Source of the DNA: Betaproteobacteria bacterium
Lineage (GTDB): Bacteria; Pseudomonadota; Gammaproteobacteria; Burkholderiales; Rhodocyclaceae
Direction: 5' to 3'
Length of the DNA stretch: 64,000 nucleotides
Assembly (NCBI GenBank): GCA_016868295.1
Contig: VGHJ01000009.1
Span: forward strand, 901 to 64,900
Within the stretch, counting starts at the first letter, position 1. The number at the start of each line of letters is the position of its first letter. Positions 3,576 to 61,750 of the stretch are shown here, piece by piece. The notes below the pieces were generated by a model. That model was not told the DNA's origin, searched no databases, and saw only the letters and a program-made list of their open reading frames with translations. Both the position numbers and the translations under genes were made by a program.

Positions 3576-3600
3576 CGCCGTATCGCAGCGACTGACTTTT
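3576..3600 (-). repeat. Dispersed motif AGTCAGTC-N8-ACGGCG, exact copy
   Basis: Reverse complement reads aaaagtcagtcgctgcgatacggcg. Confidence 0.9.
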
Positions 3601-3630
3601 CCCCCGACGATTCGGAAGCAAAGGAGGAGC

Positions 3631-3807
3631 GGGCCAAGGGCGAGGCTGCCGCCGATTTCGCGGCCGCCGCCGCGGCGGCGCGCTCGCCGGGGATGTCCGG
3701 GCCTGCTGTCCGAGCGCAGCGAGTTTGCAGGCCCGGCCGGCGGGCGCGACGACGCAAGGGCACCCGCAGGGCGGCCGCGCATGAGGCGGCAGCTTCGCCC
3801 TTGGCCC
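3631..3807. repeat. ~177-bp nested inverted-repeat element (MITE/REPIN-like or structured RNA)
   Basis: 23-bp arms 3631-3653 and 3785-3807 (1 G.T mismatch) plus three inner complementary pairs. Confidence 0.7.
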
Positions 3808-3830
3808 ACGGGCAGAGAGTACGAAAGGGT

Positions 3831-4124
3831 TTAAGCAGCGGCCAGCTTGAAATTGATCGTCTTGCCGAGCGCGGCCGCGGCGCTCGCCAGCGTGGTCAGG
3901 GTCAGGCTGGTATCTTCCTCGTCGAGCAGGCGATTCAGCGCGGCGCGGCTGGTGTGCATGCGCTTCGCCAGCTCGGTCTTGGTGATCTTCTGGTGCTTCA
4001 TTTCCTCGGCGATCTGCCAGGCGATCACCCGCTTGATCGCAACGGCGGTGGCATCCTCGAGCATCGCCTGCTCCATGAGGAAATCATCGAAATTGCTGCC
4101 GATGTTTTTCTTGCCCATGCTCAT
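3831..4124 (-). CDS. XRE-family HTH antitoxin
   Basis: NIGSNFDDFL...ITKTELAKRMHTSRAALNRLLD...LTLTTL; ATGA overlap with toxin stop. Confidence 0.85.
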   Translation of the reverse strand: MSMGKKNIGSNFDDFLMEQAMLEDATAVAIKRVIAWQIAEEMKHQKITKTELAKRMHTSRAALNRLLDEEDTSLTLTTLASAAAALGKTINFKLAAA

Positions 4125-4462
4125 CTCCGTCTCAACTGTTTCAGCCGATCCCGGGCCAGATCGAGATCGGATTTGGGGGTGGCCTGCTGCTTTTTGATGA
4201 AACCGTGCAGGAGCACCATGATTTGTCCGTCCAGTGCGAACAGCACGCGGGCGATGCGGTTGTCCAGCCTGATCCGCACCTCCCATATGTCGCCCGTCAG
4301 GTGATCGACCAGCGGCATGCCGAGCGGCCAGCCGAACTGCACCGTCTTGATGTTCTCGCCGATGGTCTTGCGCTCTGCGGCCGGCAGTTCCTTCAGCCAA
4401 TCCCGAACGGGTTCGGCACCGGCATCGGTCCGAAAGAAGCGCACGTCCAGGACGGGTTTCAT
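4121..4462 (-). CDS. RelE-like toxin (Gp49/DUF891 type)
   Basis: FFRTDAGAEPVRDWL...QFGWPLGMP...IWEVR...VLLHGFIKKQQATP. Confidence 0.85.
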   Translation of the reverse strand: MKPVLDVRFFRTDAGAEPVRDWLKELPAAERKTIGENIKTVQFGWPLGMPLVDHLTGDIWEVRIRLDNRIARVLFALDGQIMVLLHGFIKKQQATPKSDLDLARDRLKQLRRR

Positions 4463-4469
4463 GGGCAGC

Positions 4470-6503: not shown

Positions 6504-6528
6504 AAAAGTCAGTCCCTGCGGGACGGCG
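6504..6528 (+). repeat. Dispersed motif AGTCAGTC-N8-ACGGCG, exact copy (murA-hisG intergenic)
   Basis: aaaagtcagtccctgcgggacggcg; identical to 27639-27663. Confidence 0.9.
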
Positions 6529-6533: not shown

Positions 6534-8025
<1,492 letters not shown>

Positions 8026-8033
8026 GTGTTTTC

Positions 8034-8789
8034 CTATGCGCGAAGCTTGTAGCCTATCCTGAGCAGCCACAAGGTGAAAAGGGTGAGCGCCGCGAAGCAT
8101 CCGCTCACCACGCCGAGGCTGGTCCAGGGCGAGACGTCGGAAACGCCGAAAAAGCCGTGGCGGAAGCCGTCGATCATGTAGAAGATCGGGTTGAAATGGG
8201 AGACCTGCTGCCAGAAGGGCGGCAGCGAATGGATCGAGTAGAACACGCCGGAGAGGAAGGTCAACGGCATGATGATGAAGTTCTGGAAGGCTGCGAGCTG
8301 GTCGAACTTTTCGGCCCAGATGCCGGCAACCACGCCCATCGCGCCCATGATCGCCCCGCCCAGCAAGGCGAAGGCGAGAATCCACAGCGGGGCCTGCCAG
8401 GGCAGGTCGACCAGCCACAGCGTCGCCAGCAGCACGCCCAGGCCGACGACGATGCCGCGCGCAATGGCCGCCAGCACGAAGGCGGCGAAAAACTGGGCAT
8501 AGGAGATCGGCGGCAGCAGCATGAAGATGATGTTGCCCGTCACCTTCGACTGGATGAGCGATGAGGAACTGTTGGCGAAGGCGTTCTGCAGCAGCGACAT
8601 CATCGCCAGCCCGGGCAGCAGGAAGGACGTATAGGAAACGTTTTCGTATACCCGCACATGCCGCTCGAGCACATGGGAAAAGATGAGCAGGAACAGCAGC
8701 GCCGTCAGGATCGGCGCCGCCACCGTCTGGAAGCTCACTTTCCAGAAGCGCAGCACTTCCTTGTAGAGCAGGGTCGCGAATCCGCCCAT
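8034..8789 (-). CDS. ABC-2 transporter permease (YadH-like)
   Basis: LLYKEVLRFW, FIIMPLTFLSGVFYSI, NPIFYMIDGFR. Confidence 0.9.
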   Translation of the reverse strand: MGGFATLLYKEVLRFWKVSFQTVAAPILTALLFLLIFSHVLERHVRVYENVSYTSFLLPGLAMMSLLQNAFANSSSSLIQSKVTGNIIFMLLPPISYAQFFAAFVLAAIARGIVVGLGVLLATLWLVDLPWQAPLWILAFALLGGAIMGAMGVVAGIWAEKFDQLAAFQNFIIMPLTFLSGVFYSIHSLPPFWQQVSHFNPIFYMIDGFRHGFFGVSDVSPWTSLGVVSGCFAALTLFTLWLLRIGYKLRA

Positions 8790-9691: not shown

Positions 9692-9715
9692 GCTGATTTC
9701 TATTGAATCGCCGGC

Positions 9716-10623: not shown

Positions 10624-10645
10624 GGTTTACCGGAAAGCAGATTGA

Positions 10646-15543: not shown

Positions 15544-17511
15544 TCACCCCTTCAGCAGGCGGTTCTCGGCCGCCTCGAGCCCGTCGGGCACGCCCAGCAG
15601 CACCACCACGTCGCCGGCCTCGAGGCGCGCCTCGGGCGCCGGGCTGACGGCGCGGATGCCGCGGCGGCGGATGAGCGAGACCGACACGTCGAAGCGCTCG
15701 AGCCCGGCTTCCCCGAGCGTGCGGCCGATGGCCCAGGCGCCGGCATTCAGCGCCACCGAATGCAGGCGCGGCTGGCGCGCTTCATCCAGGTCGTCGGCGG
15801 CGTCCGAGGTGCCGTGGAAGAAGCCGCGCATGAGGTCGTAGCGCTGCTCGCGCACCTCGCGGAAGCGCCGCACGACGCGGTTGATGGGCACGCCGAGCAG
15901 CACCAGGGCGTGCGAGGCGAGCATGATGCTCGACTCGAGCACCTCCGGCACCACTTCGGCGGCGCCGGCCTGCGACAGCCGGTCGAAGTCGCTCTCGTCG
16001 GCGGCGCGCACCACCACCGGCAGTTCCGGCCGCAGCTCGCGCACCATGGCCAGCACGCGCAGGGCCGAATCGGGGTCGGCGTAGGAGACGATCACCACGC
16101 TGGCGCGCATCAGCCCGGCGGCGACGAGCGCCTCGCGCCGCGCCGCGTCGCCATACACCACCGTGTCGCCGGCGGCGGCGGCCTCGCGCACGCGCTCCGG
16201 GTCGAGGTCGAGCGCGACGTAGGAGACGCCCTCCTGCTCCATGAAGCGCGCCAGGTACTGGCCGCTGCGGCCGTAGCCGCAAATGATGGCGTGCTTTTCG
16301 GTCGCCATCGAGCGCGCGGCGATCTGCGTCAGCTCCATCGAGCGCAGCATCCATTCCGAGGCGCAGAAGCGCATCACCAGCTTCTCGCTGTGCAGGACGA
16401 TGAGCGGGGCGAGCAGCATGGACAGGGCCAGCGCCGCCGTCACCACCTGCAGGACGGGCGCCGGCAGCAGCGGCAGGTCGCGTATGTGGGCGATCAGCAC
16501 GAAGCCGAACTCGCCGCCGGCGCACAGCCAGAGGCCGCTCCTCATGGCGGTGCCCGGCGAGGCGCCGAAGGCGCGCGAGAGCCCGGCGACGAGGGCGAAC
16601 TTGCCGGCGAGGAGCAGGACGAGCAGGCCGGCCACCCAGGGCAGCTGGCGCACGATGACGCCGACGTCGAGGAACATGCCGACGGTGATGAAGAAGAGGC
16701 CGAGCAGCACGTCGCGGAAGGGCTTGATGTCCTCCTCCACCTGGTAGCGGTACTCGGTCTCCGAGATGAGCATGCCGGCGAGGAAGGCGCCCAGCGCCAG
16801 CGACAGGCCGGCCAGCTCGGTGAGCCAGGCCAGCCCGAGCGTGACCAGCAGCACGTTGAGCATGAACAGCTCGGTCGAGCGCCGCCGGGCGACGATGTGG
16901 AACCAGCCGCGCATCAGGCGCTGGCCGAAGAAGAGGATGAGCGAGAGCACCACGGCCGCCTTGGCCGCCGCCACGGCCAGGGTGCCGGCCATGGCCTCCG
17001 CCGGCTGCGACAGCGCCGGCACGACGATCAGCAGCGGCACCACGGCGAGGTCCTGGAAGAGCAGCACGCCGATGATCTCGCGTCCGTGCTTCGACTCGAG
17101 CTGCAGGCGCTCGGCCAGCATCTTGACGACGAGCGCCGTGGAGGACATGGCGAGAATGCCGCCCAAGGCGATGCCGGCGGATAAAGTCAGTCCCGCCGGC
17201 ACGGCGACGGCGAGGACGAGCAGGATGGTAAGCAGCACCTGTGCCAGGCCGAGGCCGAAGACGATGCGCTTCATGCTGTAGAGGCGCGGCAGCGAGAACT
17301 CGAGCCCGATGGAGAACATGAGGAAGACCACGCCGAACTCGGCCAGGTGGTGCGCGGCGGCGGAATCGGGCACCAGGTCGAGGGCGTGCGGCCCGATCGC
17401 CGCGCCCACCAGCAGGTAGCCCAGCACGGGCGGCAGGTTGAGCCAGCGGAACAGCGCCACCACCAGCACCGCGGAGGCGAGAAGGACGAGCACCAGTTGC
17501 AATGTGGTCAT
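15544..17511 (-). CDS. CPA2 cation:proton antiporter with TrkA-N/TrkA-C domains (KefB/KefC/YbaL-like)
   Basis: AEFGVVFLMFSIGLEFS, LLFQDLAVVP, IKPFRDVLLGLFFITVGM, IICGYGRSG. Confidence 0.92.
   Translation of the reverse strand: MTTLQLVLVLLASAVLVVALFRWLNLPPVLGYLLVGAAIGPHALDLVPDSAAAHHLAEFGVVFLMFSIGLEFSLPRLYSMKRIVFGLGLAQVLLTILLVLAVAVPAGLTLSAGIALGGILAMSSTALVVKMLAERLQLESKHGREIIGVLLFQDLAVVPLLIVVPALSQPAEAMAGTLAVAAAKAAVVLSLILFFGQRLMRGWFHIVARRRSTELFMLNVLLVTLGLAWLTELAGLSLALGAFLAGMLISETEYRYQVEEDIKPFRDVLLGLFFITVGMFLDVGVIVRQLPWVAGLLVLLLAGKFALVAGLSRAFGASPGTAMRSGLWLCAGGEFGFVLIAHIRDLPLLPAPVLQVVTAALALSMLLAPLIVLHSEKLVMRFCASEWMLRSMELTQIAARSMATEKHAIICGYGRSGQYLARFMEQEGVSYVALDLDPERVREAAAAGDTVVYGDAARREALVAAGLMRASVVIVSYADPDSALRVLAMVRELRPELPVVVRAADESDFDRLSQAGAAEVVPEVLESSIMLASHALVLLGVPINRVVRRFREVREQRYDLMRGFFHGTSDAADDLDEARQPRLHSVALNAGAWAIGRTLGEAGLERFDVSVSLIRRRGIRAVSPAPEARLEAGDVVVLLGVPDGLEAAENRLLKG
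17182..17206 (+). repeat. Dispersed motif, exact copy inside CPA2 antiporter gene
   Basis: taaagtcagtcccgccggcacggcg. Confidence 0.85.
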
Positions 17512-19765: not shown

Positions 19766-20542
19766 ATGACGTACGAAAACATCATCGTCGAGACCCGCGG
19801 CAAGGTCGGCCTCATCACGCTCAACCGCCCGAAGGCGCTCAACGCCCTCAACGACGCCCTGATCGACGAACTCGGCGACGCGCTGGGCAAATTCGAGGCC
19901 GACGAGGCCATCGGCGCCATGGTCATCACCGGCTCGGAGAAGGCCTTCGCCGCCGGCGCCGACATCGTCGCCATGAGCACGATGGACTACATGGACGTCT
20001 ACAAGGGCGACTTCATCACGCGCAACTGGGAGCGGGTGAAGACCTGCCGCAAGCCGGTCATCGCCGCGGTGGCCGGCTTCGCGCTGGGCGGCGGCTGCGA
20101 GCTGGCGATGTCCTGCGACATCATCATCGCCGCCGACACGGCCAAGTTCGGCCAGCCGGAGATCAAGCTCGGCATCCTGCCCGGCGCCGGCGGCACGCAG
20201 CGCATGCCGCGCGCCGTGGGCAAGGCCAAGGCCATGGACCTCTGCCTCACCGCGCGCATGATGGACGCCGCCGAGGCCGAGCGTGCCGGGCTGGTCTCCC
20301 GCGTCGTGCCTGCAGACAAGCTGGTCGAGGAAGCGCTCGCCGCCGCCGAGACCATCGCCGGCTTCTCGCTGCCGGTGGTGATGATGGTCAAGGAGTGCGT
20401 CAATCGCGCCTACGAGAGCGGGCTCGACGAGGGCCTGCTCTTCGAGCGCCGCACCTTCCACGCCGCCTTCTCGCTCGCCGACAAGAAGGAAGGCATGGCC
20501 GCCTTCGTCGAAAAGCGCAAGCCGGACTTCAAGAACAAATAG
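19766..20542 (+). CDS. Enoyl-CoA hydratase
   Basis: [46 protein letters not shown]. Confidence 0.95.
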
Positions 20543-20562
20543 TCAGTCACTTCCGGACGGCG
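20538..20562 (+). repeat. Dispersed motif, exact copy spanning two convergent stop codons
   Basis: aatagtcagtcacttccggacggcg. Confidence 0.85.
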
Positions 20563-23790: not shown

Positions 23791-26700
23791 TCAATGCCGC
23801 GGCCGGCTCTCCCAGGCCTTCTGCAGGCGCTTCACCGACACCGGCATCGGCGTCTTCAGCTCCTGCGCGAACAGCGCGACGCGCAGTTCCTCGAGCAGCC
23901 AGCGGAAATCCTCCAGCCAGGGGTCGGGCGCGCCGCTCTTGCGCCGCGCCAGGCGCTCGCGCTCCCAGGGTTTATACAATGCCGCAAACTCCTGCGCCAG
24001 CCGGGCGTCGCGCGCCGGATCGGCGCGCAGCTTGTCCACGCGCAATTGGGCCGCCTTCAGGTAGCGCGGAAAATGCGCCAGGCGCTCGAAGGGCGTCGCC
24101 TCGACGAAGACCTTCGGCAGCAGCTCGGCGCACTGGCTCCTGATGTCTTCCGCCGCGGCCGGCTGCGCCTTGATCGTCGCGAGTTTCTTCTGCAGGGCGG
24201 CATGCTCGGCGAGAATCGTCCCGACCAGCCGCCCGATTTCCTGCCCGACCAGGCTGATGCGGGCGCGCGCCTCGTCCTTGCGCCTGGCGAAACTGGCGGC
24301 ATCGGCCGGCAGCGGCTCCAGCATGCAGGTGCGCTCCAGCGTCGCCGCGACGATCTGGCTTTTCAGTTCGGCCTCCGTGCCCCAGGCCATGTAGAGCAGG
24401 CCCAGCTCGCGCGGCAGGGATTTCTCGACGAACTTCACCTGCTCGCGCAGCTCGAGCGCGAAAAGCCGGCGCAGGCCCTTGCGGTGCACGGCGGCGGCCT
24501 TCTCCGGCGTGTCCTGCACGCGCAGCGCCACCGTGTCGCTCTCGTCCACCAGCGCCGGAAAGCCGATCACCTTGCGGCCGCCGACGTCCACTTCCATGAT
24601 CTCCGGCAGCGCGCCGAAGCTCCAGGAAGTCAGTCCCTGCAGCACGGCGCCTTCGGTTTCCTCCTTCACCTCGGCGCGGGCGAAGCTCTGCTCGATCTTC
24701 TCGGCGAAGCGGCTGCGCAGTGCCGCGAGGTCGCGCGACTGCCCGAGCATGCGGCCGTGCTCGTCCACGGCGCGGAAGTTCATGAAGAAGTGCGCCGGCA
24801 CCATCTCGGCGCGGAAGGCGTCGAGCGGCAGCTTCAACTGCATCTTCTCCTCGGCGGCGCGCGTCAGCGCACGCAGGAAGGGCTCGTCGGCCTCGCGGGG
24901 CGCTTCCGCGAAGTCGGCGACGAATTCATCGATGGGCTGCAGGCGGTGGCGGTATTTCTGCGGCAGGGTCTTCACGAACTGCGCCGCCTTCTGCTCGAGC
25001 AGGCCCGGCACCAGCCACTCGCAGCGCACCGCCGGCACCTGGTTCAACGCCGCCACCGGCACCGTCAGCGTGACGCCGTCGTCCTCGGTGCCGGGCTCGA
25101 AATGGTAGGCGAGCGGATAGCGCTGGCCGTGGATCTCCAGCTGCGGCGGGAAGCGCTCCGAGGTGACGCCGGCGGCATCGTGGCGCATGAGCTGATCGCG
25201 CGTGAGGAAGAGCCGCTTCGGCTCGGCCTTTTCCGCCTCCTTGCGCCAGCGCTCGAAGCCGGCGACGTCGACAACCTCGGCAGGAATCTGCGCGTCGTAG
25301 AAGGCGAAGATCAGTTCCTCGTCGACCAGCACGTCCTGGCGGCGCGTCTTGTGCTCGAGCTGCTCGATGTCGCGCACCAGCTTGCGGTTGTGCTGGAAGA
25401 AGCGGGCGTGGCGCGCCATCTCGTCGGGCAGTTCGCCCTGCACCAGGCCCTCGCGGATGAGCAGCGCGCGGGCGAGCTTCGGGTCGATGCGGCCATAGGT
25501 CACCGGCCGTTTTGCGTAGAGCACCAGGCCGTGCAGGGTGGCGCGCTCCCAGGCGCGGACCTGGCCGGTCTTCTTTTCCCAGTGCGGGTCGTAGACGCTC
25601 TTCCTCACCATGTGGGCGCCGACCTCTTCCAGCCATTCCGGCTCGATCTTCGCCAGGCAGCGCGCGTAGAGCCGCGTCGTCTCGACCAGTTCGGCGGCGA
25701 CGATCCAGCGGCCGGCCTTCTTCGCCAGCGCCGAGCCGGGATGCGGCCAGAAGCGGATGCCGCGCGCGCCGAGGTAGTGGCCCTCCTCCTCGCTCTTCAG
25801 GCCGAGGTTGCCGAGCAGGCCGGCGAGCAGCGCCTTGTGGATCTGCTCGTAGGTCGCCGGCTGCTCGTTCGCCCCGGCGCCGGGCCGCCCCAAGCCGGGG
25901 CGCTTGTGCGCCTGCGAGCGAAGCGAGCCGCCGTCACCCCCTTCCCCGGGAAGGGGGGCGGGGGGTAGGTGTCCTTTCAGCCAGCTGTGCTCGCCGCAGA
26001 GGGTGTGCAGCTGGGCGTGCACCTCGCGCCACTCGCGCATGCGCAGGTAATGCAGGAAGTTCTTGCGGCACCAGTCGCGCTGTTTGCGCTGCGACTCGTG
26101 GATCCAGATCTGATCGAAGGCCTTCCAGAGATTCAGCCAGGCGAGGAATTCCGAGCGCTGCTGCTGTTCGTCGCCGCGCCATTTGGCGTGGGCCTGGTCG
26201 GCCGCGCCGGCCTGCTCGGGCGGCCGCTCGCGCGGGTCCTGCACCGAGAGCACGGCGGCGATGATCAGCATCTCGCGCAGGCAGTGGCCGTCACGCGCGG
26301 CGAGGATCATGCGGCCGATGCGCGGATCGAGCGGCAGCTTGGCCAGCTCGCGGCCGGACTGCGTCAGCTCGCGCTGGTCATCGACGGCGCCCAGCTCCTC
26401 CAGCAACTGATAGCCGTCGGTGATCATTCTGGGCAGCGGCTTGTCGAGGAAAGGGAATGCCTCCACCTCGCCCAGGTGCAGCGACTTCATGCGCAGGATG
26501 ACGCCGGCCAGCGAGGAGCGCAGGATTTCCGGATCGGTGTAGGCGGGGCGTTTGGCGAAATCCTCCTCGTCGTAGAGGCGGATGCAGACGCCGCTCATGA
26601 CGCGGCCGCAGCGCCCGGCACGCTGGCTGGCGGCGGAGCGGGCGATGTCCTCGACCTGCAGCATCTCCACCTTGTTGCGGTGGGAATAGCGCTTGACGCG

Positions 26701-27636: not shown

Positions 27637-27638
27637 GA

Positions 27639-27663
27639 AAAAGTCAGTCCCTGCGGGACGGCG
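27639..27663 (+). repeat. Dispersed motif, exact copy between toxin stop and hrpA start
   Basis: aaaagtcagtccctgcgggacggcg. Confidence 0.9.
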
Positions 27664-27665
27664 GC

Positions 27666-29929: not shown

Positions 29930-30768
29930 GTGCGTACCGTTTCAGCGGTCCTGCTGGCCGCTGCCTGCTTCCTCGCACCGGCCGTCCAGGCCCAGCTCGC
30001 GCCGGAGGACCGCCAGGCCTGGCCGAAGACGGATTTCTCGAAGCGCAGCGTCGAGCTGACGGAGATCCAGTTCGGCGGCCCGCCGAAGGACGGCATCCCG
30101 GCCATCGACAAGCCGCGCTTCGACAGCGCCAGCCAGGCGCGCGCCTGAATATCCTCCCCGCCGAAGTCGTCGCCTTCGAAGACTTCCTGTCGGCCTATCC
30201 GGCGGGCGAAGTCCTTTCACGCCGCACCGGCCACTCGCGGCCCTACGGCCGCAATCCCTACCGCGGCTACGACCGCGTCGGCCAGAATCCCTTCCTCTTC
30301 GACGACCCCGTCGACAAGCGCCTGCCGGCGATGGAACGCGTGCTCGCCGTCGAACTCGGCGGCAGGACGCGGCTGCATCCCTTCGCCCAGCTCGAGAAGC
30401 AGTTGGTGCTCAACGAGTCGCTGCAGCGCACGCCCTATGTCGTTTTCGCCAAGGCCCGCTTGAGCAGCGCGCTGGACACGGAGCGCATCGAGGACGGTCG
30501 CCGCATTCCGGCGGCGGCGGCCTATCTGCGCACGCTCGACGGCCGCGTGCTGGAGTTCGCCGCCAGGGAAGACCGCGTCATCGATCTGCAGACCGGCTCG
30601 TCCTGGAACGCCCTGGGCGAAGCAACCGCCGGCACGCTCAAAGGCAAGCGGCTGGAAAGCGTGCCGGGCGGCGTGCATTTCGCCTTCGCCTGGCTCGCCT
30701 TCCGGCCGGACTCCGAGATCCATCAGCCGGCGGCAAACGCCAACGCCGCGCCGTCCCGCAGAGACTGA
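29930..30768 (+). pseudogene. DUF3179-family gene with internal deletion and frameshift at ~30145
   Basis: Frame A: signal peptide + GGPPKDGIPAID, stop at 30146; frame B resumes LNILPAEVV...YGRNPY...HFAFAWLAFRP. Confidence 0.75.
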
Positions 30769-30773
30769 CTTTT
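30749..30773 (-). repeat. Dispersed motif, exact copy over DUF3179 stop codon
   Basis: Reverse complement aaaagtcagtctctgcgggacggcg. Confidence 0.9.
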
Positions 30774-39079: not shown

Positions 39080-39754
39080 ATGAATGCATTGCCCGCCCTG
39101 CCCCGCTACACCCTGCGCGAGGAGATCGCCAGCAGCGTCACGCACGGCATCGGCATCCTGCTCGCCATCGCCGGCCTGGCCGTGCTGGTCGCCTTCGCCG
39201 CCATAAACGGCGACGCCTGGCACGTGACGAGCTGCAGCATCTTCGGCGCCGCCCTGATCCTCTGCTTCACCACCTCCACGCTCTACCACAGCGTGCAGGT
39301 CGAGCGCCTCAAGCACACCCTGCGCGCCCTCGACCATGCCGCCATCTTCGTCCTCATCGCCGGCACCTACACCCCCTTCCTGCTGGTGAACCTGCGCGGG
39401 CCGTGGGGCTGGTCGCTCCTCGCCGTGATCTGGGGACTGACTTTTGCCGGCATCGGCCTGCGCCTCTTCCTCAAGGGTCGGCTGCACGGCCTGGTGGTGT
39501 CGATCTACATCGCCATGGGCTGGATCGTGGTGGTGGCGGCCGAGCCGATGCTGCGCCATGTCGGCACCGGCGGCCTGATCCTGCTCGCCGCGGGCGGACT
39601 CGCCTACACCGCCGGCGTCGCCTTCTACAAGTGGAAGCGCCTGCCCTACAACCACGCCATCTGGCACGGCTTCGTGCTGGCCGGCGCGGCGCTGCACTTC
39701 TTCGCCGTGCTGTTCTACGTCATTCCCTGGCCGGGCACGGTAGCCGCCGCCTAA
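39080..39754 (+). CDS. Hemolysin III / PAQR-family membrane protein
   Basis: EEIASSVTHGIG, STLYH, DHAAIFVLIAGTYTP, NHAIWHGFVL. Confidence 0.92.
   Translation: MNALPALPRYTLREEIASSVTHGIGILLAIAGLAVLVAFAAINGDAWHVTSCSIFGAALILCFTTSTLYHSVQVERLKHTLRALDHAAIFVLIAGTYTPFLLVNLRGPWGWSLLAVIWGLTFAGIGLRLFLKGRLHGLVVSIYIAMGWIVVVAAEPMLRHVGTGGLILLAAGGLAYTAGVAFYKWKRLPYNHAIWHGFVLAGAALHFFAVLFYVIPWPGTVAAA
39421..39445 (-). repeat. Dispersed motif, exact copy inside hemolysin III gene
   Basis: Reverse complement aaaagtcagtccccagatcacggcg. Confidence 0.85.
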
Positions 39755-54166: not shown

Positions 54167-57100
54167 ATGTCAGACAGGAAGCAGCCCGTCATCGCCATCC
54201 GCGGCGCGCGCCAGAACAACCTGAAAAACCTCAGCCTCGACCTGCCCACCGGTGAACTCATCGTCGTCACCGGCGTCTCCGGCTCGGGCAAGAGCTCGCT
54301 GGTCTTCGACACGCTCTACGCCGAGGGGCAGCGGCGCTACGTCGAGACCTTCTCGCCCTACGCGCGCCAGTTCCTCGACCGCATGGACCGCCCGCAGGTC
54401 GATGCGATCTCCGGCATCCCGCCGGCCATCGCCATCGACCAGACCAACCCGGTGCGCACCTCGCGCTCCACCGTCGGCACCATGACGGAGCTCGCCGACC
54501 ACCTCAAGCTGCTCTACGCCCGCGCGGCGCGCCTTTACTGCCGCGGCTGCGGCCAGCCGGTGCGGCGCGACACGGCGGAAAGCATCCACGCGGAAATAGT
54601 CAGTCGCTGCGGCACGGCGCAGGACCCGCGCCTGATCGTCGCCTTCCCCGTCGAGGTGCCGCACAACTTCGGCGAGGACGAGGTGCTGCGCCTGCTCGAA
54701 GCCCAGGGCTACACGCGCATCCACGCCCGCCGCGGCAAGACGATCGAGGTGGTGCAGGACCGCTTCCGCCTCGCCCATGCCGAGCGCGCCCGCGTGATCG
54801 AGGCGCTGGAGGCGGCGCTGCGCGTCGGCCAGGGCCGCGTTGCCATTTATCCGCTCACTGATGACGGCACGCCGGCGACGCCGTGGAAGTTCTCCACCGA
54901 TCTGCACTGCGCCGACTGCGACATCCATTACGCCGAGCCGACACCGAGCAGCTTCTCCTTCAACTCGCCGCTCGGCGCCTGCGAGGCCTGCCGCGGCTTC
55001 GGCCGCATCATCGGCGTCGACTTCGGCCTGGTGGTGCCCGACGAGTCGAAGACGCTCGCCGGCGGCGCGGTGAAGCCCTGGCAGACCGAGTCCTACCGCG
55101 AGTGCCAGCAGGATATGGCGAAGTACGCGCCGAAGCGCGGCGTGGCCATGGACATCCCCTGGCGCGACCTGCCGCCCGAGCATCGCCGCTGGGTGCTGGA
55201 GGGCGACGACGACTGGGTGAGCTGGAAGCAATCCTGGCCCGGCAAGTGGTACGGCGTGCGCCGCTTCTTCGACTGGCTGGAGACCAAGGCCTACAAGATG
55301 CACATCCGCGTGCTGCTGTCGCGCTACCGCGCCTACACGCCCTGCGCGGCCTGCGACGGCGCGCGCCTGAAGCCGGAGTCGCTGCTGTGGAAGCTCGGCG
55401 CGGAGAAGCTTTCCATCCACGACCTGATGCTGCTGCCGATCGAACGCTGCCGCGACTTCTTCGCCGCGCTCGCCCTGCCCGCCCCGCTCGACGAGGCGGC
55501 CGACCTGCTGCTCGGCGAGATCCGCACGCGCCTCGCCTACCTGTGCGAGGTCGGCCTCGGCTACCTCACGCTCGACCGCCAGTCGCGCACGCTCTCCGGC
55601 GGCGAGGTGCAGCGCATCAACCTCACCACCGCGCTCGGCACCTCGCTGGTGAACACCCTGTTCGTGCTCGACGAGCCGTCCATCGGCCTGCACCCGCGCG
55701 ACATGGGCCGCGTCATCAATGTCATGCGCCGCCTGCGCGACGCCGGCAATTCGCTGGTGGTGGTCGAGCACGACCCGCAGATCATGTTTGAAGCCGACCG
55801 GCTGCTCGACATGGGCCCCGGCCCGGGCGAGCGCGGCGGCGAGGTGGTGTTCTTCGGCGCGCCGAGCGAGATGCGGCAGGCGGAGACGCTGACGGCGGAG
55901 TATTTGTCGGGGCGAAAGCGGGCCGAAGGTGCTGCCCCCTCACCCCAGCCCTCTCCCCGCAAGCGGGGAGAGGGGGTAGACGCCCCCTCGCCCCTCAGGG
56001 GAGAGGGCCGGGGTGAGGGGTGGTTGGAAATCCTCGGCGCGCAGGAACACAACCTGAAAAACATCGACGTCGCCCTGCCGCTCAACCGCCTGGTCTGCGT
56101 GACGGGCGTTTCCGGCTCGGGCAAGTCGACGCTGGTGCAGGACGTGCTCCACGCCGCGCTGCGCAAGCAGCAGGGCAAGCCGACCGAGGCGCCGGGCCAA
56201 CACCGCGCGCTGCGCGGCTTTGAACACATCGCCGAAGTGGCGATGGTCGACCAGACGCCGATCGGCAAGACGACGCGCTCCAACCCGGCCAGCTACGTCG
56301 GCGCCTTCGACCCGATCCGCAACCTGTTCGCGAAGGACGAGGTTTCGAAGGAGCGCGGCTATACGCCGGGCACCTTCAGCTTCAACTCCGGCAACGGCAG
56401 GTGCCCGACCTGCGGCGGCAACGGCTTCGAGCACGTCGAGATGCAGTTCCTCTCCGACGTCTACCTGCGCTGCCCCGACTGCGACGGCAAACGCTTCCGC
56501 GCCGAAGTGCTGGAGGTTACGCTCGAGGGCAAGTCGATCGCCGACGCATTGGCGCTCACCGTATCGGAGGCACTGACTTTCTTCGCCGACCGGCCGGAAG
56601 TGCTGGCGCGCCTGGCGCCGCTGGCCGACGTCGGCCTCGACTACCTGCGCCTCGGCCAGCCGGTGCCGACGCTCTCCGGCGGCGAGGCGCAGCGCCTCAA
56701 GCTCGCCGGCCACCTTGCCGACAGCGACACGGAAGGCAAACCGACGCTGTTCCTCTTCGACGAGCCGACGACGGGCCTGCACTTCGACGACATCGCCAAG
56801 CTGCTGAAGTCTTTCCGCCGCCTGGTCGCCGCCGGCCACTCGCTGGTAGTGATCGAGCACAACCTCGACGTCATCCGCGCCGCCGACTGGATCGTCGACC
56901 TCGGCCCGGAGGGCGGCGAGGCCGGCGGCGAGCTGGTCTGCGCCGGCACGGTGGCGGAGGTGATGGGGTGCGAGGCGTCGCATACGGGGAAGGCGCTGCG
57001 GGAGTACGAATCCGCCTTCGTCGACTGGGCGCGCGCGGCGTCGCCTGTCGCCCTGCCGGCGCCGCCGCAGGCCGACGACAGCATCCGCATCCACAACGCC

Positions 57101-59728
57101 CGCGAGCACAACCTGAAGGGCGTGGACGTCGACATCCCGCGCAACCGCTTCACCGTCGTCACCGGCGTCTCCGGCTCGGGCAAGTCGACCCTGGCCTTCG
57201 ACATCCTCTTCGCCGAGGGGCAGCGCCGCTACCTCGAGTCGCTCAACGCCTACGCCCGCCAGTTCGTGCAGCCCTCGGCGCGGCCCGACGTCGACGCCAT
57301 CTTCGGCATCCCGCCGACGGTGGCCATCGAGCAGCGCACCAGCCGCGGCGGGCGCAAGAGCACGGTCGGCACGCTCACCGAGATCCAGCACTTCCTGCGC
57401 CTGCTCTACGTCAAGCTCGGACTGCAGCATTGCCCCGACTGCGCCGTGCCGATCGAGCCGCAGAGCGAGGAGGCCATCGCCGCGCGCATCCTGCGCGACT
57501 GGCGCGGCCGGCACATCGGCCTGCTGGCGCCGCTGGTGACGGCGAGGAAGGGCGTGTACACCGACCTCGCCAAGTGGGCGGCGGCCAAGGGCTTCACGCA
57601 CCTGCGCGTCGACGGCGCCTTCCTGCCGACGGCCAAGTGGCCGCGCCTCGACCGCTTCCGCGAACACGACATCGCGCTGCCGGTGGCCGACCTCGTCGTC
57701 ACGGCGGACAACGAGGCGGAACTGCGCGCCGCGCTGGCCCGCGCGCTGGAATTCGGCAAGGGCACGCTGCAGGTGGTCGGCCCGCTCGACGCGCTGGCGC
57801 AGGCCATCCGCCAGGGCAGGAACGAGGCGAAGCTGGAGCAGCACAGCTTCTCGACGAAACGCGCCTGCCCCTCCTGCGGCAAAAGCTTCGCCGAACCCGA
57901 CCCGCGCCTGTTCTCCTACAACTCCAGGCACGGCTGGTGCGGAAGTTGTTACGGCACGGGGCTGGCCATCACCGGCTTCGACGCCGAGCAGACCGGCGAG
58001 GAGATCTGGTGGAACGAATGGTTCGAAGGGGAAGCGCACGCCTGCCCGGCCTGCTCGGGCAAGCGCCTCAACCCCACCGCGCTGGCGGTGCGCTTCCGCG
58101 ACCACTCCATCGCCGATCTTTCCGCCCTGCCGGTCTCCGGACTCGAAGCGTTCTTCGCCAAACTCAAGCTCGCCGGCCGCGACGAGGCCATCGCCCGCGA
58201 CATCCTCGTCGAACTGCACTCGCGCCTGGCCTTCCTGCGCGAGGTCGGCCTCGACTACCTGGCGCTCGACCGCGCCGCGCCGACGCTCTCCGGCGGCGAG
58301 GCGCAGCGCATCCGGCTGGCCGCCCAGCTCGGCTCCAACCTGCAGGGCGTCTGCTACATCCTCGACGAGCCGACGATAGGACTGCATCCGCGCGACAACC
58401 GCATCCTGCTCGACACCCTGGCGAAGCTGGAGGCCAAGGGCAACACCCTGGTGGTGGTCGAGCACGACGAGGACACCATCCGCCGCGCCGACCACGTGCT
58501 CGACCTCGGCCCCGGCGCCGGCACGCAGGGCGGCCGCGTCGTCGCCGAAGGCACGGCGGAGGAGTTGATGCGCCACCCCGACTCCGTCACCGGCCAATGT
58601 CTCGCGCAGCCCTTGCTGCACCCGCTCGCGCCGCGGCGAAAAGTCAGTCCCCGCGATACGGCGCTGGAGATCGTCGGCGCCACTCTCCACAACCTGAAGG
58701 ACCTCGACCTCGCCCTGCCGCTCGCCCGCCTGTCGGTGGTGACCGGCGTCTCGGGCTCCGGCAAGTCGACGCTGGCGCGCGAGGTGCTGCGCGACAACCT
58801 GCACCGGCGGGTGGCCGAGGGGCGCAAGCACAAGAGCGCGCCCCTGCACGGCTGCCGCGAACTGCGCGGCTGGGAAGCCGTCGCCCGCGTGCTCGAAGTC
58901 GACCAGACGCCGATCGGCAAGACGCCGCGCTCCTGCCCGGCCACCTACGTCGGCTTCTGGGACGCCGTGAGGAAGCTCTTCGCCGACACGGCGGAGTCGC
59001 GCATCCGCGGCTACTCGGTCTCGCGCTTCTCCTTCAACACCGCCGGCGGCCGCTGCGAGGCCTGCGAGGGCCAGGGCGTCGTGAGGATCGAGATGAGCTT
59101 CCTGCCCGACGTGAAGGTGCCCTGCGACTCTTGCCGCGGCACGCGCTTCAACGCCGAGACGCTGACGGTGCGCTGGAAGGGGAAACACATCGGCGAGGTG
59201 CTGGCCATGAGCGTCGACGAGGCCGTCGACTTCTTCTCGGCGCATCCGTCCATCCACCACGCCCTGCGCCTGCTGCAGGACGTCGGCCTCGGCTACCTCA
59301 CCCTCGGCCAGCAGAGCCCGACGCTCTCCGGCGGCGAGGCGCAGCGCATCAAGCTGGTGACCGAGCTGGCGAAGGTTCGCCCCTCACCCCAGCCCTCTCC
59401 CCGCGCGCGGGGAGAGGGAGGTGCGCCCCGACAGATGAGCGCCCACACCCTCTACGTCCTCGACGAGCCGACGGTCGGCCTGCACATGGCCGACGTGGAG
59501 AAGCTGATCCGCGTGCTGCACCGCCTGGTCGACGGCGGCAACACGGTGGTGGTGATCGAGCACAACCTCGACGTGATGGCCGAAGCGGACTGGATCGTGG
59601 ACCTCGGCCCGGAAGGCGGCGCGGCGGGCGGGCGCATCGTCGCCCAGGGCGCGCCCGAGAAGGTGGCCAACGCGGCCTCGCACACCGGCCGGATACTGAA
59701 GGACTTTCTGGCGGAACGCTCGCGCTAG
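54167..59728 (+). CDS. uvrA: Double-length excinuclease ABC subunit A (~1850 aa, four ABC ATPase modules)
   Basis: Four GVSGSGKS Walker A and four LSGGE signatures, multiple CxxC zinc fingers. Confidence 0.93.
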   Translation: MSDRKQPVIAIRGARQNNLKNLSLDLPTGELIVVTGVSGSGKSSLVFDTLYAEGQRRYVETFSPYARQFLDRMDRPQVDAISGIPPAIAIDQTNPVRTSRSTVGTMTELADHLKLLYARAARLYCRGCGQPVRRDTAESIHAEIVSRCGTAQDPRLIVAFPVEVPHNFGEDEVLRLLEAQGYTRIHARRGKTIEVVQDRFRLAHAERARVIEALEAALRVGQGRVAIYPLTDDGTPATPWKFSTDLHCADCDIHYAEPTPSSFSFNSPLGACEACRGFGRIIGVDFGLVVPDESKTLAGGAVKPWQTESYRECQQDMAKYAPKRGVAMDIPWRDLPPEHRRWVLEGDDDWVSWKQSWPGKWYGVRRFFDWLETKAYKMHIRVLLSRYRAYTPCAACDGARLKPESLLWKLGAEKLSIHDLMLLPIERCRDFFAALALPAPLDEAADLLLGEIRTRLAYLCEVGLGYLTLDRQSRTLSGGEVQRINLTTALGTSLVNTLFVLDEPSIGLHPRDMGRVINVMRRLRDAGNSLVVVEHDPQIMFEADRLLDMGPGPGERGGEVVFFGAPSEMRQAETLTAEYLSGRKRAEGAAPSPQPSPRKRGEGVDAPSPLRGEGRGEGWLEILGAQEHNLKNIDVALPLNRLVCVTGVSGSGKSTLVQDVLHAALRKQQGKPTEAPGQHRALRGFEHIAEVAMVDQTPIGKTTRSNPASYVGAFDPIRNLFAKDEVSKERGYTPGTFSFNSGNGRCPTCGGNGFEHVEMQFLSDVYLRCPDCDGKRFRAEVLEVTLEGKSIADALALTVSEALTFFADRPEVLARLAPLADVGLDYLRLGQPVPTLSGGEAQRLKLAGHLADSDTEGKPTLFLFDEPTTGLHFDDIAKLLKSFRRLVAAGHSLVVIEHNLDVIRAADWIVDLGPEGGEAGGELVCAGTVAEVMGCEASHTGKALREYESAFVDWARAASPVALPAPPQADDSIRIHNAREHNLKGVDVDIPRNRFTVVTGVSGSGKSTLAFDILFAEGQRRYLESLNAYARQFVQPSARPDVDAIFGIPPTVAIEQRTSRGGRKSTVGTLTEIQHFLRLLYVKLGLQHCPDCAVPIEPQSEEAIAARILRDWRGRHIGLLAPLVTARKGVYTDLAKWAAAKGFTHLRVDGAFLPTAKWPRLDRFREHDIALPVADLVVTADNEAELRAALARALEFGKGTLQVVGPLDALAQAIRQGRNEAKLEQHSFSTKRACPSCGKSFAEPDPRLFSYNSRHGWCGSCYGTGLAITGFDAEQTGEEIWWNEWFEGEAHACPACSGKRLNPTALAVRFRDHSIADLSALPVSGLEAFFAKLKLAGRDEAIARDILVELHSRLAFLREVGLDYLALDRAAPTLSGGEAQRIRLAAQLGSNLQGVCYILDEPTIGLHPRDNRILLDTLAKLEAKGNTLVVVEHDEDTIRRADHVLDLGPGAGTQGGRVVAEGTAEELMRHPDSVTGQCLAQPLLHPLAPRRKVSPRDTALEIVGATLHNLKDLDLALPLARLSVVTGVSGSGKSTLAREVLRDNLHRRVAEGRKHKSAPLHGCRELRGWEAVARVLEVDQTPIGKTPRSCPATYVGFWDAVRKLFADTAESRIRGYSVSRFSFNTAGGRCEACEGQGVVRIEMSFLPDVKVPCDSCRGTRFNAETLTVRWKGKHIGEVLAMSVDEAVDFFSAHPSIHHALRLLQDVGLGYLTLGQQSPTLSGGEAQRIKLVTELAKVRPSPQPSPRARGEGGAPRQMSAHTLYVLDEPTVGLHMADVEKLIRVLHRLVDGGNTVVVIEHNLDVMAEADWIVDLGPEGGAAGGRIVAQGAPEKVANAASHTGRILKDFLAERSR
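54595..54619 (+). repeat. Dispersed motif, exact copy inside uvrA
   Basis: aatagtcagtcgctgcggcacggcg. Confidence 0.85.
55937..56019. repeat. Palindromic repeat inserted in frame in uvrA
   Basis: ccctcaccccagccctctccccgcaagcggggagaggg...gggagagggccggggtgaggg; encodes PSPQPSPRKRGEG...GEGRGEG. Confidence 0.8.
56557..56581 (-). repeat. Dispersed motif, near copy (2 mismatches) inside uvrA
   Basis: Reverse complement gaaagtcagtgcctccgatacggtg. Confidence 0.6.
58639..58663 (+). repeat. Dispersed motif, exact copy inside uvrA
   Basis: aaaagtcagtccccgcgatacggcg. Confidence 0.85.
59381..59418. repeat. Palindromic repeat (half unit) inserted in frame in uvrA
   Basis: ccctcaccccagccctctccccgcgcgcggggagaggg; first 24 bp identical to 55937; encodes PSPQPSPRARGEG. 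Confidence 0.8.
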
Positions 59729-60636
59729 AGGCTGTCGAAATGCTGCGCCATGCGCCGGCGCAGCGCAGCGTCGGGCAGACGGCCGTAATTCGCGCCCATG
59801 TTCTCCAGCATGTGCGCCGGGTTCGAGGTGGCGGGAATGGCGCAGGTCACCGCCGGGTGCGAGACGACGAATTTCAGAAAAAACTGCGCCCAGTTGGCGC
59901 AGTCGATCTCCACCGCCCAGGCCGGCAGCGGCTTGCCGCGCACGCGCGTAAAGAGATCGCCGCCGTCGAAGGGCCGGTTGGCGATCACCGCCATGCGCCG
60001 CTCGGCGGCGAGCGGCAGCAGGTGACGCTCCGGTTCGCGGTCGTGCAGGCCGTAGGTGAACTGCACGAAGTCGAAATCGGCCTTCTTCATCGCCTGCAGC
60101 AGCTCGTCGTGGCGACGGCCGTGCGAGGTGGTGATGCCGATGTGGCGGAGGCGGCCCTCGCGCTTCATCTCGCGCAGCACCTCCAGATGCCCCTCCCAGT
60201 CGAGCATGTTGTGGATCTGCATCAGGTCGAAGCGCGGCACGCCCCACAGCTTGCGCGAGGCCTCCATCTGCCGCCGCCCCAGCGCCTGGCCGTAGATCCA
60301 CACCTTGGTGGCGGAGAACAGGTTCTCCCGCCCCTTCAGCCGCGGCAGCAACTCGCCGATGACGCGCTCGGCCGTGCCGTACATCGGGGATGAGTCGATG
60401 AGCCGCCCGCCGTGGTCGAAGAAGGCCTGCAGCACCGGCTGCAGGCGCGCAAGCGCCGCGGCGCCGGCGCCGGTGTCGAACGTCAGCCAGGAGCCTACGC
60501 CGATCAGCGGAATGCGTTCGCCGCTGGAAGGAATCGGCTTGGTCAGCGGCACGCGTTCGTCCGCCAGGCCGGGCTCCAGCGCCAGCGCGAGACCCAGCCC
60601 GGCCAGGCCCTGCAGAAAGCCGCGTCTTTGCGTCAT
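59725..60636 (-). CDS. Aldo/keto reductase with twin-arginine-like signal peptide
   Basis: QRRGFL + hydrophobic stretch; IDSSPMYG, DLMQIHN, GITTSHG, NRPF, AIPATS. Confidence 0.88.
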   Translation of the reverse strand: MTQRRGFLQGLAGLGLALALEPGLADERVPLTKPIPSSGERIPLIGVGSWLTFDTGAGAAALARLQPVLQAFFDHGGRLIDSSPMYGTAERVIGELLPRLKGRENLFSATKVWIYGQALGRRQMEASRKLWGVPRFDLMQIHNMLDWEGHLEVLREMKREGRLRHIGITTSHGRRHDELLQAMKKADFDFVQFTYGLHDREPERHLLPLAAERRMAVIANRPFDGGDLFTRVRGKPLPAWAVEIDCANWAQFFLKFVVSHPAVTCAIPATSNPAHMLENMGANYGRLPDAALRRRMAQHFDSL

Positions 60637-60691
60637 GCGTTTCACGATAGGTTGAAAACGGGCCCGGCACAAGGGCTACAATCTTGCCGTC

Positions 60692-61516
60692 ATGAATCGG
60701 TCCTTTGTTCGACTCGCCTTCCTGGCGCTGGGTTTCCTCGCCGCCCTGCCCGCCCATGCCCTGCCGCGGGAAGCCGCCGTGCCCGGCGGCGTCGCCCTCG
60801 TCCGCCTCGGCAACGGCAGCGAGCGGCCGCAGGCCTGGTTCGGCGAAAAGCGCGTCGCCGTGCTGCGCGATGGCCAGGGCTGGGTGGCGCTGGTCGGACT
60901 GCCGCTCGCGCTGGAGCCGGGCGAGCACGCCCTGCGCGTGCAGGCCGGCGGCAGCGAGGGGACGAAGCCGGTCCGCGTCGCCGCCAAGCACTACCCGACG
61001 CAGCGCTTCAGCGTGCCCGACCGGCGCAAGGTCGAGCCGCCGCCCGAGGACATGCTGCGCATCGAGCGCGAGCAGAAGCGCATCGACGAGATCAAGGCGC
61101 ACTTTCGCGACGAACCGAACATCGACCTCGCCTTCCGTGCACCGGCGCAGGGCCGCCTCACCGGCAACTTCGGCCTGCGCCGCGTCATCAACGGCCTCGA
61201 TCGCATGCCGCACGCTGGCATCGACTTCGCCGTGCCGGTCGGCACGCCGGTGCGCGCGGCGGCGGCGGGCATCGTCGTCGAGACCGGCGACTTCTTCTTC
61301 AACGGCCACTCGGTGTACCTCGACCACGGCCAGGGCCTGGTGACGCTCTACTGCCACCTCGACCGCGTCGACGTGAAGCCCGGCGCGCGCGTCGCGGCCG
61401 GACAGCGCATCGGCCTCTCCGGCAACACCGGGCGCACGAGCGGACCGCACCTGCACTGGACGGTGCTCGCCAACGGCGCGGCGGTCGACCCACTGCTGTT
61501 CCTGAGGAAGCAATGA
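60692..61516 (+). CDS. M23 metallopeptidase with N-terminal DUF4124-like/peptidoglycan-binding region
   Basis: Signal peptide; H.GIDFA, LDHGQGL.T.YCHL, SGPHLHW. Confidence 0.9.
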   Translation: MNRSFVRLAFLALGFLAALPAHALPREAAVPGGVALVRLGNGSERPQAWFGEKRVAVLRDGQGWVALVGLPLALEPGEHALRVQAGGSEGTKPVRVAAKHYPTQRFSVPDRRKVEPPPEDMLRIEREQKRIDEIKAHFRDEPNIDLAFRAPAQGRLTGNFGLRRVINGLDRMPHAGIDFAVPVGTPVRAAAAGIVVETGDFFFNGHSVYLDHGQGLVTLYCHLDRVDVKPGARVAAGQRIGLSGNTGRTSGPHLHWTVLANGAAVDPLLFLRKQ

Positions 61517-61686
61517 CGCTGTCCGATGCCGAGGTTCCCTGGAAGGCCTTCGCGCTGTTCTCCGCCCTCGCCGCGCTGGCGGCTACTGCGATGTTGCAGA
61601 ACGCCGTGCTGACGGGACTGCCTTTTCTGCTGGCGGGGGCGGCGGCAGTTCCGGCAGCGGGGGCGCCTCGGGCAGCTGGTAATTGA
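61513..61686 (+). CDS. Short hydrophobic ORF, possibly a truncated membrane-protein remnant
   Basis: ATGA overlap with M23 stop, GAGGA RBS; 57 aa. Confidence 0.35.
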   Translation: MTLSDAEVPWKAFALFSALAALAATAMLQNAVLTGLPFLLAGAAAVPAAGAPRAAGN

Positions 61687-61725
61687 CGCAAGACAAGGCC
61701 GGATTCCCCTTGGCGGCAACAATGT

Positions 61726-61750
61726 CGCCGTGTCGTACCGTCTGACTTTT
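61726..61750 (-). repeat. Dispersed motif, near copy (1 mismatch) over nosD start
   Basis: Reverse complement aaaagtcagacggtacgacacggcg. Confidence 0.7.

Follow-up and report, generated by a model that had tools for sequence, protein, structure and literature searches.

A rigid bipartite word in the chromosomes of a Rhodocyclaceae clade as a candidate DNA uptake signal

A 2025 survey of 177 genomes treated uptake sequences as confined to the Neisseriaceae and the Pasteurellaceae (bioRxiv 10.1101/2025.10.24.684340). The DNA uptake sequence (DUS) of the Neisseriaceae is GCCGTCTGAA, extended to a 12-mer in AT-DUS; an essential CTG core is common to all of its dialects, and inverted pairs of DUS are frequent in terminators (Frye et al., PMC3630211). 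About half of the known DUS and of the uptake signal sequences (USS) of the Pasteurellaceae lie in terminators, and both are enriched in genome-maintenance genes, including those of UvrABC (bioRxiv 10.1101/2025.10.24.684340). Findlay and Redfield found 65%, 49% and 34.5% of the uptake sequences of three species inside open reading frames, with a preference for poorly conserved residues and for particular frames (PMC2817400). Here, we describe a dispersed bipartite motif, AGTCAGTC-N8-ACGGCG, in a 64-kb stretch of the core chromosome of an uncultured Rhodocyclaceae bacterium (contig VGHJ01000009.1; this whole stretch is referred to as the window), and compare it with these systems as a candidate uptake signal.

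A pattern search of both strands of the window yielded ten exact matches to the motif, seven on the plus and three on the minus strand, and each of the ten AGTCAGTC 8-mers in the window is part of a full motif, with no stray copy. An earlier note on this DNA had counted ten occurrences, all followed after 8 bp by ACGGCG, and this count holds, as do its observations of a C at the second spacer position in 10/10 copies and at the fifth in 9/10. Its minus-strand coordinates were exact, whereas those on the plus strand were 3 nt low because the AAA prefix had been included. Under Markov models of order 0-3, the window should contain 0.0003-0.0008 copies, in line with the chance expectation of about 0.001 given earlier; the enrichment over the Markov expectation is at least 10^4, and none of 100 dinucleotide shuffles of the window contained a match. 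The motif is real and very strongly non-random. A search allowing mismatches added minus-strand copies with one mismatch at 61602 and 61726 and with two at 56557; the latter two had been pointed out before and are genuine near copies, whereas the one at 61602-61623 had been overlooked. Matches more degenerate than these were not above chance in the window.

The logo of 177 distinct copies reads (R)AAA-AGTCAGTC-[C/T/G]-C-N-G-C-R-R-N-ACGGCG-(A), which can also be written as the consensus 5'-(R)AAA-AGTCAGTC-YCNGCRRN-ACGGCG-3'; logo positions -1 and -2 are partly fixed by the search pattern, and the same prefix is present in the window's own copies. The motif comprises 14 invariant positions and about ten biased ones across 25 bp, and a comparison of the flanks of the window copies revealed no shared similarity past ~25 nt. 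Its density is about one copy per 5-6 kb in the window and in a related locus, L001, and lower elsewhere, with one extra copy per 16 kb in contigs that had been selected for the motif. The first block contains TCAG, the 454 key. A sequencing-adaptor or assembly artefact was rejected, because the motif occurs in independent JGI, NCBI and ENA assemblies, where it is found in frame within conserved genes. Full-text searches with motif strings returned only primer and barcode noise, and the motif is absent from descriptions in the searchable literature.

The motif is restricted to one clade of Rhodocyclaceae around Candidatus Desulfobacillus. The window contains a long UvrA paralogue, and the regions around its orthologues in other genomes were scanned for exact and one-off copies. 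Loci in which this protein is 83-90% identical carry the motif: seven exact copies and one one-off copy were found in 25.5 kb of L001, five and none in 21.9 kb of L205, four and two in 25.5 kb of L203, one and one in 25.8 kb of L003, and one and three in 25.8 kb of L206. The locus L208, with 80% identity, has neither an exact nor a one-off copy in 25.5 kb. Among the matches listed, 80 loci of other proteobacteria (59-88% identity, mostly 59-72%; 1.64 Mb), a negative-control set that includes named Azoarcus, Pseudothauera, Bordetella, Cupriavidus and Rubrivivax records, contained no exact copy at all. A locus resembling Candidatus Desulfobacillus, L338, which is syntenic with the window at 19-48 kb, has four exact copies and one one-off copy in 21.8 kb. 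At least 119 stretches in JGI metagenomes match AAAGTCAGTC-N8-ACGGCG, and ten housekeeping proteins from stretches with several copies fall into clusters labelled Rhodocyclaceae, Rhodocyclales, Zoogloeaceae, Candidatus Desulfobacillus denitrificans and Sulfuritalea sp. In the viral database IMG/VR, 32 stretches match this same 16-base pattern with the AA prefix, which is about the chance level by a rough estimate, and the matches to the 14-base pattern are mostly due to chance.

The DUS of Neisseriaceae (5'-AT-GCCGTCTGAA-3' and its dialects), for which the minor pilin ComP is the receptor, and the motif are both hyper-abundant core-genome words that occur on either strand, are conserved among the related species of a clade and do not occur outside it. 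Both occupy permissive coding and intergenic positions with a frame bias, occur in DNA-repair genes and have betaproteobacterial hosts. The motif differs in being bipartite over 22-25 bp instead of contiguous over 10-12 bp, in occurring about once per 5-6 kb instead of about once per kb, and in lacking terminator-forming inverted pairs. Its reverse complement, CGCCGT-N8-GACTGACT, contains GCCGT and CTGA, the two halves of GCCGTCTGA including the CTG core, at a distance of 10 bp. This resemblance has a chance probability of about 10^-3 to 10^-2 by rough calculation, but it was noticed post hoc and is given little weight. Membership among the DUS dialects was rejected, since the motif is bipartite and the DUS halves are split by 10 bp. 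The earlier proposal of a new uptake signal fared well in that every sequence-level prediction that was tried came out as expected, but its term 'dialect' is not justified, because the motif is a bipartite word of 22-25 nt rather than a form of the Neisseria DUS, which has 10-12 nt.

The USS of Pasteurellaceae consists of a 9-bp core with phased AT-rich flanks, together ~29 bp. Like the motif, which has an A-tract at one end, it is composite, asymmetric and longer than a single short core; it accumulates by point mutation, and 49-65% of its copies lie in open reading frames, where they favour certain frames and residues of low conservation (PMC2817400). Nevertheless, there is no sequence similarity between the two, and the motif is made of two rigid invariant blocks and not of a core with degenerate flanks, has a lower density and belongs to a different phylum-level lineage. 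Chi and the FtsK-orienting polar sequences (KOPS) are also over-represented chromosomal words, but they are 5-8 nt long and strongly polarized with respect to replication, whereas the motif is 22-25 nt long and unpolarized. Using locus GC skew, which is only a proxy for replication direction, 67 copies had one orientation and 62 the other (p = 0.79; 130 copies in loci of at least 4 kb). This agrees with the expectation that strict replichore polarity would be lacking, and the Chi/KOPS reading was rejected on these counts. The N8 geometry is similar to that of a Type I restriction-modification target. A typical target of this kind has 3-5 nt, N6-8 and another 3-5 nt, and is normally not enriched; this candidate was also rejected, the blocks of the motif being 8 (or 11) and 6 nt long and the word being enriched at least 10^4-fold.

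Comparison of orthologous loci indicates how the copies arose. When the codons of the UvrA paralogue were aligned with the proteins as a guide, neither of its two exact sites showed an indel, and the clade was colinear with the outgroups: the clade peptides are ..RRKVSPRDTALEI.. and ..AAIVSRC(D/G/N/S)TA.., those of the outgroups ..RRPVGREDPALAI.., ..RREIAADHPAIVV.. and ..AELEERCAQAG.., and at the 58642 site the clade has RRKVSPRDTA where outgroups have RRPVGREDPA or RREIAADHPA. The word has therefore replaced codons that were already there, in linkers of low conservation. The copy at the junction of the enoyl-CoA hydratase and EamA genes (20541) is missing at the orthologous junction of the Candidatus Desulfobacillus-like locus; it originated when the last codons of EamA underwent synonymous and conservative changes and 4 nt were duplicated between the stop codons. 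In addition, copies recur at the same position in different genomes with differing spacers at the two UvrA sites, the TPM and NosD-start sites, the HlyIII site, and the sites inside and upstream of hrpA. On the evidence of these alignments, the motif was created where it stands, as variable protein segments underwent substitutions, and was not inserted.

Insertion of a mobile element is ruled out for the bulk of the copies, because the alignments are colinear and the junction copy was made by substitution. Miniature inverted-repeat transposable elements (MITEs) and repetitive extragenic palindromes (REP/REPIN), the latter mobilized by REP-associated tyrosine transposases (RAYTs), do share with the motif the hundreds of dispersed copies of 20-35 nt, and some motif copies form a short stem; the commonest spacer allows the 5-bp stem GTCCC-TGC-GGGAC. 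However, these elements are extragenic, defined by hairpins and inserted, whereas one third to one half of the motif copies lie in coding sequence, those in coding regions are colinear with motif-free orthologues, and the bulk have no similarity past 25 nt. Stem covariation was also lacking, as pairing of the form GTCCC-NNN-GGGAC or between spacer and CGGCG was no commoner than in shuffled columns, and a hairpin, REP or attC reading was rejected for this reason. Neither a transposase nor a RAYT was found in the window by Pfam scans, as the note had stated for transposases. It is therefore very improbable that the copies are remnants or modules of a MITE or REP/REPIN-like element spread by a transposase, a reading that is already largely refuted for the bulk and survives only for one sub-family. 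The copies of this sub-family, with the spacer GCTGGGAT, sit in a repeated element of ~190 nt that was found in L001, L249 and L295; the bulk of the copies are not the ends of MITEs or insertion sequences. Each element contains one motif copy and an ATTCCC-N8-GGGAAT hairpin like dRS3 of Neisseria. Two elements, at L001:22540-22760 (+) and L001:23620-23830 (-), form an inverted pair flanking an MgtC gene, an arrangement suggestive of a small mobile cassette or of a segment that can invert, and further elements lie at L249:1-150 and L295:440-640. A search of Rfam matched nothing in the window, in L001 or in L295.

The placement of the copies was determined for 179 distinct copies with a codon-model classifier. 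Of these, 31% lie fully in coding sequence, 29% have coding sequence on one side only and 4% are at gene-gene junctions, while the 35% without clear coding sequence within 150 nt are inflated by lower-GC contigs and chance matches; in the window 5/10 copies are in coding sequence. As had been noted before, copies occur in both orientations, in unrelated genes and at junctions, and the sites in the window are coding, edge and intergenic. Copies within genes are equally often sense and antisense (28 each) and have a pronounced frame bias, 24/28 antisense and 17/28 sense copies being in a single frame, and copies at gene edges lean towards antisense (33 vs 19). The peptide encoded by the antisense copies is A-V-x-x-G-L-T(F), which forms part of membrane or signal segments, for example, AVPAGLT in KefC, AVIWGLTF in the HlyIII protein, AVLQGLT in hrpA, and the C-terminus of EamA.

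The edge bias would be expected of a transcription or translation signal (a weak terminator or attenuator, a 5'-leader element or an operator) read as CGCCGT-N8-GACTGACTTTT, and the copies at 6507 and 27642 are co-directional, lie in operon spacers before start codons and have a minimal hairpin with a T-run. A scan for terminator-like structures at positions 1-40000 of the window found minimal 5-bp stems at these two copies only, and the totals were not above those of shuffles. In a few phage contigs (L004, L080, L012 and L064), the motif also immediately precedes a ribosome-binding site. Nevertheless, a signal of this kind is highly doubtful: the sense copies in the UvrA paralogue are conserved, copies in coding sequence are balanced between the strands, a terminator would not need 14 invariant bases, and the copies in the phage contig L030 have the opposite orientation. 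The leader/terminator idea derived from the phage contigs was rejected because of the sense coding copies, the lack of covariation and these cases of opposite orientation. As there is neither hairpin covariation nor an excess of terminator-like matches over shuffles, the word is read as duplex DNA and not as a hairpin. It should be noted that several viral contigs with a GC content of 0.54-0.65 carry two or three copies a few hundred bp apart (L004:5155-5385, L080:11281-11730, L012:3953-4504 and L030:8533-9016), in short spacers between small genes and often right before a ribosome-binding site; a copy in L030 lies within the perfect 9-bp stem GTCCCGCCG-GCA-CGGCGGGAC.

Conservation acts on the DNA word itself. 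Between pairs of orthologous sites, the 14 fixed bases differ by 3.7%, the AAA prefix by 13.5%, the spacer by 18.9% and the 30-nt flanks by 20.8%, in a sample that is partly ascertained, the sites having come from the motif scan, and in which only the two UvrA groups are complete. AGT to AGC is the sole change that recurs across these sites. In these two groups only position 7 changes, by the synonymous exchange AGT to AGC, which is toward the codon expected to be preferred in a genome rich in GC at third codon positions (GC3) and which recurs in the motif-sparse lineages L003, L206 and L191 and partly in L203. The four-fold degenerate sites in GTC, ACG and GCG never change, whereas adjacent synonymous sites do. 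The recurrent variant of the UvrA and TPM sites in these four lineages is AGTCAGCC, which may reflect decay once the force that maintained the motif was lost or, alternatively, a changed specificity; it is mildly enriched, with five copies in 531 kb of motif-selected metagenome contigs vs one in 1.64 Mb of controls.

Strong cross-species conservation at orthologous positions is also what would be expected of the binding site of an abundant, lineage-specific chromosomal protein (a nucleoid protein, a segregation factor or condensin loader, or a self-DNA marker in defence or repair), each site being kept by natural selection. The restriction to one clade and the long, asymmetric duplex motif with position-specific base preferences in its spacer and without a hairpin are likewise consistent with such a protein, which might be two-domain or dimeric with a footprint of ~25 bp. 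We nevertheless consider this explanation rather unlikely, because the sites are found in the least-constrained sequence (spacers, gene ends, linkers and transmembrane segments) without a functional pattern, show no polarity and turn over between close relatives. Moreover, we know of no described nucleoid or segregation protein that uses hundreds of high-information sites of 22-25 bp written into coding sequence. The cyanobacterial word HIP1 (GCGATCGC) is kept in place at orthologous sites, including sites in genes, and has no mobile-element origin. An analogous process, in which sequence-biased repair, modification or gene conversion makes and keeps the word in place without any role in uptake or as a landing pad, would account for the origin by point substitution, for the upkeep against synonymous drift and for the lack of a mobile-element signature. 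However, HIP1 is a short palindrome tied to the specificity of a methyltransferase, whereas the motif is non-palindromic and, with 22-25 bp, unlike words of methyltransferase size; no candidate enzyme is known, and nothing favours such a process specifically over uptake drive. We therefore regard it as improbable.

The explanation that we favour, at about even confidence, is that the motif is a DNA uptake signal of the DUS/USS type that has accumulated in this Rhodocyclaceae clade by uptake bias and recombination. With the DUS and USS it has in common the over-representation on both strands, the sharing within a clade together with absence from outgroups, and the accumulation in place at permissive positions of core genes with a frame bias. 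We infer that the cells would be competent and would have a receptor for DNA at their surface, by analogy a minor pilin of a type IV pilus, which would prefer double-stranded DNA with the word over other DNA. Bound DNA would be drawn in by pilus retraction and a ComEA/ComEC route and then recombined by RecA. Alleles that contain or improve the word would be taken up more often and would displace alleles without it, a form of molecular drive, and for this reason copies would be expected to accumulate by ordinary point mutation wherever they are tolerated, i.e., in short spacers, at gene ends, and in variable linkers and transmembrane or signal segments. Thereafter they would be kept against synonymous drift. 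That the host is 'naturally competent', as the earlier note put it, is an assumption, since the organism belongs to an uncultured lineage known from metagenome-assembled genomes (MAGs).

Several observations weigh against an uptake signal. The motif (14 invariant and about ten biased positions, 25 bp) is far longer and more specific than known uptake sequences of 9-12 bp, and its density is 5-6x below that in Neisseria or Haemophilus. The inverted pairs and the location in terminators that are typical of DUS and USS were not found: there is no close inverted pair among the copy positions in ~0.9 Mb of motif-bearing DNA, and the terminator-like totals at positions 1-40000 of the window did not exceed those of shuffles. 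Neither the Pfam scans of the window nor the fetched flanks revealed competence or pilus genes, and the searchable literature contains no link between the clade (Rhodocyclaceae, Desulfobacillus, Sulfuritalea) and transformation or uptake sequences. One sub-family travels in the ~190-nt repeated element, the conservation sample was partly ascertained, and the conservation at orthologous sites fits selection on a binding site equally well. Taken together, the motif is best regarded as a candidate for an uptake signal with a new type of architecture.

Three of the exact copies in the window are on the minus strand. The first, at 3576..3597 with the spacer GCTGCGAT, is intergenic and lies directly upstream of a promoter-like TTGACA-17-TACAGT and a toxin-antitoxin pair; this near-consensus promoter is at 3565-3537, and the pair that it precedes (2932-3565, -), a Gp49/HigB-like protein and a helix-turn-helix antidote, adjoins the copy. 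The second, at 30749..30770 with the spacer TCTGCGGG, is at a gene edge inside a segment of ~4.9 kb that is missing from L338. This segment (28600-33500) lies between the CrcB and DsbB genes and contains genes for an extracytoplasmic function (ECF) sigma factor (28687-29223), a DUF692 enzyme of the MbnB/TglH/ChrH family (31075-32106) and a DUF2063 protein (32216-32980); it looks like a metal-related cassette or one for ribosomally synthesized and post-translationally modified peptides (RiPP-type). The third, at 39421..39442, is antisense within the gene of an HlyIII-family membrane protein (~39059-39754, +; ..LAVIWGLTFA..) and has orthologous copies in L001, L205 and L338.

The plus-strand copy at 6507..6528, with the spacer CCTGCGGG, occupies the short spacer between the stop codon of murA (6534) and the start of hisG and is antisense to both genes. 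Two copies are antisense within genes: 17185..17206 (+) in that of a KefC-like K+/H+ antiporter (15544-17511, -), in a membrane segment (..AVPAGLTL..), and 24628..24649 (+) in hrpA (23791-27714, -; ..GAVLQGLTS..), which has one internal exact copy, with an identical copy in L338. The copy at 20541..20562 (+) is at a convergent junction, after the TAG of the enoyl-CoA hydratase gene (+) and over the last codons and the TGA of the EamA gene (-). At 27642..27663 (+) the motif fills the spacer of ~30 nt between the stop codon of a ParE/RelE-like toxin gene and the ATG of hrpA, and the spacer of the orthologous copy in L338 differs. The toxin (..FPFAIYYEM..VVAVLDCRQDP..) belongs to a toxin-antitoxin-like pair just upstream of hrpA (27664-28230, -).

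The UvrA paralogue carries two exact copies and one copy with two mismatches. Both exact copies are sense: 54598..54619 (+; ..EIVSRCGTA..) is orthologous in 6/6 of the fetched clade genomes, while the outgroups are colinear with unrelated codons, and 58642..58663 (+; ..RRKVSPRDTA..), in a linker before a UvrA repeat, is orthologous in 7/7 clade genomes. The copy with two mismatches, at 56557..56578 (-; ..LTVSEALTFF..), is common to close relatives and may be a proto-site, a decayed site or a chance match. Two minus-strand copies have one mismatch. The copy at 61602..61623 (AGGCAGTC), in a gene for a TPM-domain protein, has exact counterparts in L203 and L205 and the counterpart AGTCAGCC in L001 and L206; the copy at 61726..61747 (AGTCAGAC), over the start and signal peptide of a NosD-like gene, is exact in L001, L203, L205 and L206. 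The UvrA paralogue itself (54167-59728, +) has ~1,850 residues (product P0001, 1853 aa) with duplicated UvrA/ABC modules and is widespread in Beta- and Gammaproteobacteria (at least 80 loci); the open reading frame that begins at 53966 is overlong, as the relatives begin at MSDKKQPVIAIRGARQNNLKNL.

The window has a GC content of 0.67 and ordinary GC3 values and Pfam content. Its GlnRS shares 89% identity with the enzyme of Candidatus Desulfobacillus denitrificans, and the closest relatives of its UvrA paralogue are found in MAGs of Rhodocyclaceae or Zoogloeaceae. The genes identified by Pfam scans include hisD, hisG, murA, the Mla system, an NtrC-type regulator, the KefC-like antiporter, KpsF, LptA, enoyl-CoA hydratase, EamA, a phasin, CysZ, hrpA, CrcB, the ECF sigma factor, MbnB/DUF692 with DUF2063, DsbB, glnS, plsB, the HlyIII-family protein, two-component systems, EptA-type transferases, PPDK, GST and the long UvrA paralogue. 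The GC content dips to 0.595 at 1-4000 and to 0.619 at 8000-12000, compared with ~0.67-0.70 elsewhere, and the first dip overlaps the toxin-antitoxin region and an unannotated open reading frame without a Pfam match (1536-2225). Another open reading frame, of 640 aa (40308-42230, +), has good GC3 and no Pfam match; a DUF3413/sulfatase protein is encoded at the equivalent position in L338. DNA of the window was detected in lake-water metagenomes, and the motif-bearing lineage is known only from metagenomes.

Sequence-specific uptake has been documented only in two families of host-associated bacteria (bioRxiv 10.1101/2025.10.24.684340), and the motif bears on the question of how far such 'self-preferring' transformation extends in nature. 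If the motif is an uptake signal, the phenomenon would extend to environmental bacteria, namely the Rhodocyclaceae of freshwater and wastewater. It is possible, and we hold this with slightly less than even confidence, that the motif represents a third family of uptake signals, which evolved independently and would be the first to lie outside the Neisseriaceae and Pasteurellaceae as well as the first from free-living environmental bacteria, with an unprecedented, rigid bipartite architecture of 25 bp. As an uptake signal of this architecture, it would call for a two-site receptor. A bolder version is that the motif may be related to the neisserial DUS, with the GCCGT and CTGA halves now separated by one turn of the helix.

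As an uptake signal, the motif would also provide a precise 25-bp probe that can be synthesized for assays of uptake, for pull-down of the receptor and for structure prediction. The coexistence of lineages with a sharp motif and lineages in which it is decaying would be a natural experiment, and their comparison could lead to the receptor via phylogenetic profiling. If the word were instead the mark of a chromosomal protein, it would reveal a new genome-wide binding system of high specificity, and on either reading it can serve as a practical taxonomic watermark for the binning of this clade.

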